Part shown: in pieces, positions 35,259 through 35,725 of the stretch | Layout: each line of letters opens with the position of its first letter | Numbering within the stretch: the stretch's first letter is position 1 | Source of the DNA: Escherichia phage vB_EcoM_Kelasse | DNA length: 64,000 nt | Direction: 5' to 3' (one strand) | Sequence record: MW749001.1 | Notes under the pieces: generated by a model | Databases searched by the model: none | The model's input: only the letters and a program-made list of their open reading frames with translations | What the model was told of the DNA's origin: nothing | Translations under genes and position numbers: made by a program

Positions 35259-35277
35259 ACTTTGTGAAATTATTTTA
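35251..35277. repeat. 27-bp dispersed repeat (copy 2)
   Basis: tgtaaacaactttgtgaaattatttta, identical to 2549..2575. Confidence 0.85.
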
Positions 35278-35725
35278 AATCATCTGCCCAATCAAGTTTA
35301 AGAGGCTCTTTATATTCACGATCTAATACGACCGGAATTTGTACATCACCGCTAAATGATAAGGGTCCAACATTATAAGACAATGTTATATGCGGTGTGT
35401 AATCATCAAAATCATGTGTAGCACCTAGTGACCGCGCATACATGTGTCGACAGCGCAGATATTCAGAATCTAGTACAAGTACAAGAGTAGATCCATCTTG
35501 TGTTTTCCATACTTCTAAATGTCCAGAAGAAGCTACTTCAAAACTTCCGCTTGATGGAACATACGGAACATTTACTCTCGAATAACATATAGTCGAATGA
35601 ATTTTTTCTCTAGGAACTGGATTAGGAACACGTAAAGAGCGCTGGAGTTCTTCCAGCGCATCAAGTGTTAATTCTGAAAACTTAGCTGCTACATAAAGAC
35701 CCGTTGAAAAGTCTTTAAATTCCAT
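35270..35725 (-). CDS. 57B: 2H-phosphoesterase family protein (T4 57B/Acb1-like)
   Basis: Two H-x-T/S motifs (HSTICY, HITLSY) typical of 2H phosphoesterases; 151 aa; position between ipI and 57A. Confidence 0.75.

Follow-up and report, generated by a model that had tools for sequence, protein, structure and literature searches.

Features of the acb1 locus

The window, which is the whole 64,000-nucleotide stretch from Escherichia phage vB_EcoM_Kelasse (sequence record MW749001.1) that was analysed, is collinear with positions 39413-102621 of T4 and shows 92-99% identity with it in nearly all aligned blocks. Genes 57A, 1 and 3 follow one another as they do in T4. On the minus strand, acb1, the orthologue of T4 gene 57B, follows gene 1 and gene 57A and precedes a gene encoding an internal virion protein (Table 1). 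Two short plus-strand ORFs located at 35442..35585 (47 aa) and 35500..35592 (30 aa) were rejected as features, being antisense inside the conserved coding frame. The Rfam scan detected no family near acb1 and returned tRNAs only, and sigma-70 and terminator consensus sequences, which were also scanned for, were not more frequent around the gene than in shuffled sequence.

Table 1. Positions in the window of acb1, of its neighbours and of the acb2 region
Feature	Position	Strand	Description	Basis
acb1 (T4 gene 57B orthologue)	35270..35725	(-)	151 aa + TAA stop; ATG at 35725	ORF listing
First catalytic motif, H43-S44-T45 (T4 H44, T46)	35591..35599	(-)	CAT TCG ACT	direct read and script check
Second catalytic motif, H112-I113-T114 (T4 H113, T115)	35384..35392	(-)	CAT ATA ACA	direct read and script check
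Ser99, sole amino-acid difference from T4 Acb1 (Ala100)	35429..35431	(-)	TCA; GCA in T4	BLASTP and script check
Gene 57A	35725..35967	(-)	tail-fibre assembly chaperone; upstream of acb1	Pfam GP57, E=5e-51
Gene 1	35967..36680	(-)	dNMP kinase; upstream of 57A on the coding strand	E=5e-104
TATAAATA, match to the T4 late-promoter consensus	36323..36330	(-)	inside gene 1, upstream of 57A-acb1	consensus match only
ip6-type internal (capsid-injected) protein gene, ipI slot	34958..35209	(-)	probable start ATG 35191; downstream of acb1	
vs.4 / acb2	23560..23826	(-)	88 aa; 12 kb from acb1	88/88 identical to T4 Vs.4
vs.3	23282..23560	(-)		90/92 identical to T4

The motif TATAAATA and its flanks are also found at the equivalent T4 site inside gene 1 (record 75005-75012), and late-promoter motifs are no more numerous in the window than expected by chance (15 vs 10.4). 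Its putative use as a late promoter for acb1 would be consistent with the onset of the cGAMP-degrading activity, which appears some 15 min after T4 infection has begun (PMC9117128).

The first-pass annotation, drawn from the sequence, had placed the ORF between ipI and 57A. Gene 57A is indeed upstream and the slot downstream is that of ipI. However, the neighbour that occupies this slot is an ip6-type gene and not an orthologue of ipI, whereas in T4 ipI itself lies downstream of 57B. The product of this neighbour matches phrog_8111 ('internal virion protein', E=4e-51), the gene bears the name ip6/ipVI in the related phages VR26 and GiZh, and the protein begins with MKTYQEFIAE, the kind of capsid-targeting start that internal proteins of T-even phages typically have. 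Its identification with ipI was rejected because BLASTP to T4 IPI aligns the first 16 residues only, i.e. the N-terminal targeting sequence. Furthermore, a tblastn search of the window with T4 IPI gave no match at E<=1e-3. Between the acb1 stop and the internal protein gene lies a promoter-like site (35228..35256, minus strand) made of TTTACA, a 17-nt spacer and TACTAT, with an upstream TG. Its hexamers are shared with T4, where they precede ipI, and the coding sequences located downstream are unrelated. The ipI slot has kept its regulatory cassette and exchanged its cargo.

Assignment of the ORF to Acb1

The acb1 product was aligned by BLASTP with T4 gp57B (NP_049750.1, from NC_000866) without any gap and with 150 identities out of 151 residues. 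It matches the Pfam family Acb1 (PF23474) with 202 bits (E=3.3e-60, for a cut-off of 27) from the first to the last position of the profile (1-144 of 144). This is the sole family retrieved from Pfam at E<=0.1, and other 2H families were not found. Its best match among PHROGs is PHROG 755 (E=1e-67), and the Acb1 protein of Erwinia phage FBB1 (PDB 7t26/7t27) aligns with its residues 8-148 (E=1e-61). Since Pfam Acb1, PHROG 755 and PDB 7t26 are all matched at such levels, the assignment to acb1 is far beyond chance.

The proposal made in the first-pass annotation, i.e. a 2H-phosphoesterase at the 57B position that would be a candidate anti-CBASS nuclease of the Acb1 type, is borne out by the T4 alignment. 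Judged from its sequence, the ORF is essentially the experimentally characterised T4 protein itself, so that the word 'candidate' understates the case. It is an ordinary intact copy of T4 gene 57B, already known and with nothing new. We consider it almost certain, from these sequence comparisons, that this ORF is the acb1 gene of a Tequatrovirus close to T4 and does what acb1 does in T4.

Active site, ligand contacts and fold

The two H-x-T/S motifs that had been noticed in the ORF were located (Table 1), and both catalytic histidines are kept with their threonines. The protein therefore has the complete HxT/HxT tetrad of the Acb1 family (H43, T45, H112 and T114). In T4 Acb1, the corresponding residues H44, T46, H113 and T115 carry out a metal-independent acid-base catalysis that goes by way of a cyclic-phosphate intermediate and gives GpAp (Hobbs et al. 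2022, PMC9117128). The same study reported that the bases of the ligand stack against Y12, W74, F107 and W147, that E141 reads the N6 of adenine and that residues 145-152 form a C-terminal lid, which shuts over the ligand. All five base contacts (T4 Y12, W74, F107, E141 and W147) have kept equivalents in the window protein, which hence contains 9 of the 9 catalytic or nucleobase-contacting residues named in this work (PMC9117128). The lid, LDWADDLK, is the same in both proteins.

Structures of FBB1 Acb1, either apo (7T26) or in complex with 3'3'-cGAMP (7T27), have revealed that its fold is that of a 2H-phosphoesterase and that its pocket is U-shaped (PMC9117128). The near-gapless alignment to 7t26 points to the same fold for the acb1 product. 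A single-sequence AlphaFold2 model of this product had a mean pLDDT of 33.5 and a pTM of 0.25, too low for the model to be used, and the fold is therefore assigned by homology to 7t26.

Differences from T4 Acb1

At the DNA level, acb1 differs from its T4 counterpart at 11 of 456 nt. Since 10 of these differences are synonymous and only one is non-synonymous, the frame is under purifying selection. The non-synonymous one replaces T4 Ala100 by Ser99, at a site that is outside the published catalytic and base-contacting residues and some dozen residues ahead of the second HxT motif. The Ser99 allele is private to the window protein among 15 aligned members of its cluster, and Ser is also found in the aligned column of a distant Acb1 of known structure (9q2g). 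Because the site is outside the published contacts and Ser is present in this distant Acb1, an altered substrate range or altered kinetics are far less probable than a neutral polymorphism. A substitution that allows cleavage of cGG or 3'2'-cGAMP, or that weakens the cleavage of cA3 and thereby dodges Panoptes while the anti-CBASS function is kept, has very little probability.

The T4 protein also has one more N-terminal Met, the first ATG of T4 being ATA in the window. The 57A/acb1 junction reads GAATGATGG in T4 and GAATAATGG in the window, so that a single G to A change accounts both for the conversion of ATG into ATA and for that of the 57A stop TGA into TAA. As a result, the two genes overlap by 1 nt (TAATG) in the window vs 4 nt in T4 (with a TGA stop). 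Among the aligned cluster members, about one in two begins, like the window protein, at the second Met, which indicates that this start-codon difference is a common variant. The TAATG stop/start overlap suggests that 57A and acb1 are probably co-transcribed and translationally coupled. We infer that neither the Ala100 to Ser substitution nor the absence of the first Met has any effect.

A second anti-CBASS gene

A second anti-CBASS gene known from T4, vs.4 (acb2), had been expected among the small ORFs at 23282..23862, and it was found there next to vs.3 (Table 1). The ORF listing extends it to a TTG at 23862, and the ATG equivalent to that of T4 is at 23826. Its product matches the crystallised 'Vs.4' chain (PDB 7UQ2, E=2e-57), to which it is identical, and the Pfam family Acb2_Tad1_hairpin (PF24729, E=7e-20). 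Vs.4/Acb2 acts as a sponge: as a hexamer, it sequesters 3'3'-cGAMP (Kd about 30 nM) and leaves the molecule uncleaved (Jenson et al. 2023, PMC10097602). Given the full identity with T4 Vs.4, the residues reported to bind cGAMP, namely Y8, H11, K23, R79 and F82 (PMC10097602), are all retained in the window.

Proposed function and alternative readings

T4 57B was found by activity-guided fractionation as the enzyme of infected cells that degrades 3'3'-cGAMP (Hobbs et al. 2022, Nature 605:522, PMC9117128). T4 Acb1 and nine further homologues cleave adenine-containing 3'-5' cyclic di- and trinucleotides such as 3'3'-cGAMP, cUA or cAAA without any metal, whereas cGG, cA4 and 3'2'-cGAMP are not cleaved (PMC9117128). 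Acb1 blocks the cAAG-dependent activation of the effector Cap4, and the H44A/H113A protein is inactive (PMC9117128). Moreover, T4 deleted for acb1 loses cGAMP hydrolysis and shows a more than 300-fold defect on CBASS-positive E. coli, while its growth is otherwise normal (PMC9117128).

On the strength of these experiments on the T4 protein, the enzymology and the anti-CBASS phenotype of the window protein are expected to be the same. It would be a metal-independent 2H-phosphoesterase that binds the cyclic di- and trinucleotide messengers produced by the CBASS CD-NTases of the host (among them 3'3'-cGAMP, cUA, cAAA and cAAG). The bases would be stacked between its aromatic residues, with one adenine read through a glutamate, and the C-terminal lid would shut over the ligand. 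Acid-base catalysis by the HxT/HxT tetrad would then let the 2'-OH of adenosine attack the 3'-5' phosphodiester, so that the ring is opened by way of a 2',3'-cyclic-phosphate intermediate and gives a linear product with a 3'-phosphate (GpAp from cGAMP). Once the signal is removed, CBASS effectors such as nucleases and phospholipases would stay inactive and the cell would not commit suicide before the phage has finished. Acb1 would do so alongside the cGAMP sponge Vs.4/Acb2 encoded 12 kb away.

Two other readings of the ORF were weighed. The acb1 product might be a generic 2H RNA enzyme, i.e. a LigT-like 2'-5' RNA ligase or a 2',3'-cyclic phosphodiesterase, with RNA ends instead of immune signals as its targets, for instance in tRNA repair. 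The HxT/HxT tetrad is common to all 2H phosphoesterases, PHROG 755 is described as 'RNA ligase', and RefSeq gives this label to T4 57B and to many of its orthologues. However, this label was propagated automatically from the fold class and is not an experimental finding, and neither the LigT nor the 2_5_RNA_ligase profile of Pfam matches the acb1 product at E<=0.1, which retrieves Acb1 only. Furthermore, the T4 protein, which is one residue apart, is the cGAMP-degrading activity: its deletion abolishes this activity and makes T4 sensitive to CBASS with no effect on other growth (PMC9117128). An RNA ligase function was consequently rejected on account of both the missing LigT-family match and the published T4 experiments, and an activity of this protein on RNA ends is highly improbable.

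The window gene might otherwise be a decaying or inactivated allele, the change of Ala to Ser or the lost upstream ATG being the inactivating event selected to escape Panoptes guards. Such guard systems fire upon depletion of cyclic nucleotides, and phages lose acb1 to escape them (PMC13577387). Knock-outs of acb1 do occur, either natural, as the nonsense mutation of Bas43, or selected, as the point mutations in the Bas35 escapers of type II Panoptes (PMC13577387). Within the cluster, the 133-aa protein of phage ECp13 diverges after residue 121 and has no normal C-terminal region, and the Ser99 allele itself is private. However, the acb1 frame of the window is open over its full length, with catalytic residues, ligand-contacting residues and lid intact, and the ratio of synonymous to non-synonymous differences from T4 is 10:1. 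In addition, the Ser found in 9q2g and the start at the second Met in about half of the aligned members both speak against a loss of function resulting from these two changes. We hence give almost no credit to inactivation, and an intact acb1 that works as in T4 remains by far the preferred reading.

Other differences from T4 in the window

The internal protein gene downstream of acb1 is one of five minus-strand genes with T-even capsid-targeting starts (MKTYQEF.., MKTYSEF.., MKTYAEF.. or MKSYTQF..), located at 25428..25901, 26386..26667, 31020..31583, 31702..32175 and 34958..35191. None of the five is orthologous to T4 ipI or ipIII, and orthologues of these two genes sought in the window were not found. 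For ipII, there is only a weak partial match, to the product of 25428..25901 (31% identity over about 75 residues). Three of the five match PHROGs of internal virion or head proteins (phrog_3155, 3499 and 8111). The other two are phrog_2280 paralogues ('unknown function') carried by a 1.2-kb segment that is located between e.8 and rnaC and is absent from T4. Since T4 IPI blocks the GmrSD restriction enzyme, this phage has a different, possibly anti-restriction, set of injected proteins.

Other changes concern mobile genes. Genes 18 and 19 flank an insertion of 643 bp that is absent from T4 and is filled by an ORF of 214 aa (61259..61903, plus strand). For its product, phrog_5104 (unknown function) is matched at E=1e-81 and a homing-endonuclease PHROG, weakly, at E=1e-4, and Pfam gives no match; this ORF is probably a free-standing mobile endonuclease gene. 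The window is devoid of T4 mobC, of the nrdD intron with I-TevII, of most of mobD and of the segC-5.3 segment (4043..5342, 16393..18097 and about 41520), and the ORFs at 16388..17934 differ from those of T4. Such differences at sites of homing endonucleases are the usual polymorphism of T-even phages. The homing endonuclease gene segB of T4 is also absent.

The tRNA cluster (32930..33944, minus strand) includes 11 genes (Arg, His, Asn, Tyr, Met, Thr, Ser, Pro, Gly, Leu and Gln) vs 8 in T4. The His, Asn, Tyr and Met genes are extra and the T4 tRNA-Ile was not called. Rfam at gathering score called 10 of these 11 tRNAs and missed the Tyr gene. An ORF at 32561..32911 encodes a protein of 116 aa that belongs to phrog_3355, of unknown function.

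Lastly, the early-gene block that contains vs.4 also includes the orthologue of tk.4 (21398..21877, minus strand), in whose product Pfam detects a macro domain (PF01661, E=1e-7). Since macro domains act on ADP-ribose derivatives, a role of tk.4 against ADP-ribose-based defences is conceivable.

Distribution and annotation

The identical 151-aa protein is public as QXN69681.1, from Escherichia phage vB_EcoM_Kelasse, and belongs to a 90% cluster of 167 members that includes UniProt ACB1_BPT4. Using tblastn, a homologue of the acb1 product was found in 1,471 phage records, 429 of which show at least 99% identity. The same cluster includes the member P0009 (WWE96770.1, Escherichia phage ECp13), whose 133-aa acb1 variant is devoid of the C-terminal lid; it is possibly a natural loss-of-function allele like that of Bas43 (PMC13577387).

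Names given in public annotation conflict, with 'RNA ligase' in PHROGs, RefSeq and many relatives vs 'hypothetical protein' in the deposited record. The value of the present analysis is one of annotation only, 35270..35725 being Acb1 and 23560..23826 being Acb2/Vs.4, and acb1 in the window raises no new biological question. A phage with both genes intact is expected to withstand many of the CBASS systems whose signals are adenine-containing 3'-5' cyclic nucleotides. Its vulnerability to Panoptes-type guards is predicted as well (PMC13577387). These predictions are useful for the host range of therapeutic Tequatrovirus.

Comparison with known systems

The closest known system is T4 Acb1, with which the window protein shares the HxT/HxT tetrad, the stacking aromatic residues, the Glu that reads adenine, the lid and the slot downstream of gene 1 and 57A. 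For Acb1 of FBB1, both HxT motifs are aligned with those of the window protein and the alignment includes a single gap of one residue. However, the sequence is clearly diverged, with Phe and Tyr at the positions of T4 W74 and F107, and the host belongs to another genus. Acb2 resembles Acb1 in that it also counters CBASS by removing the same signal, but its fold and its mechanism are unrelated and it is outside the Acb1 family.

Cellular 2H phosphoesterases (LigT / 2'-5' RNA ligase and CPDase) have two H-x-T/S motifs and a metal-independent chemistry that goes through a 2',3'-cyclic phosphate. This pair of motifs and this chemistry are what Acb1 has in common with them, and they are the source of the 'RNA ligase' label. 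The difference lies in the substrates, which for the T4 protein are the cyclic oligonucleotide signals of immunity and not RNA ends (PMC9117128).
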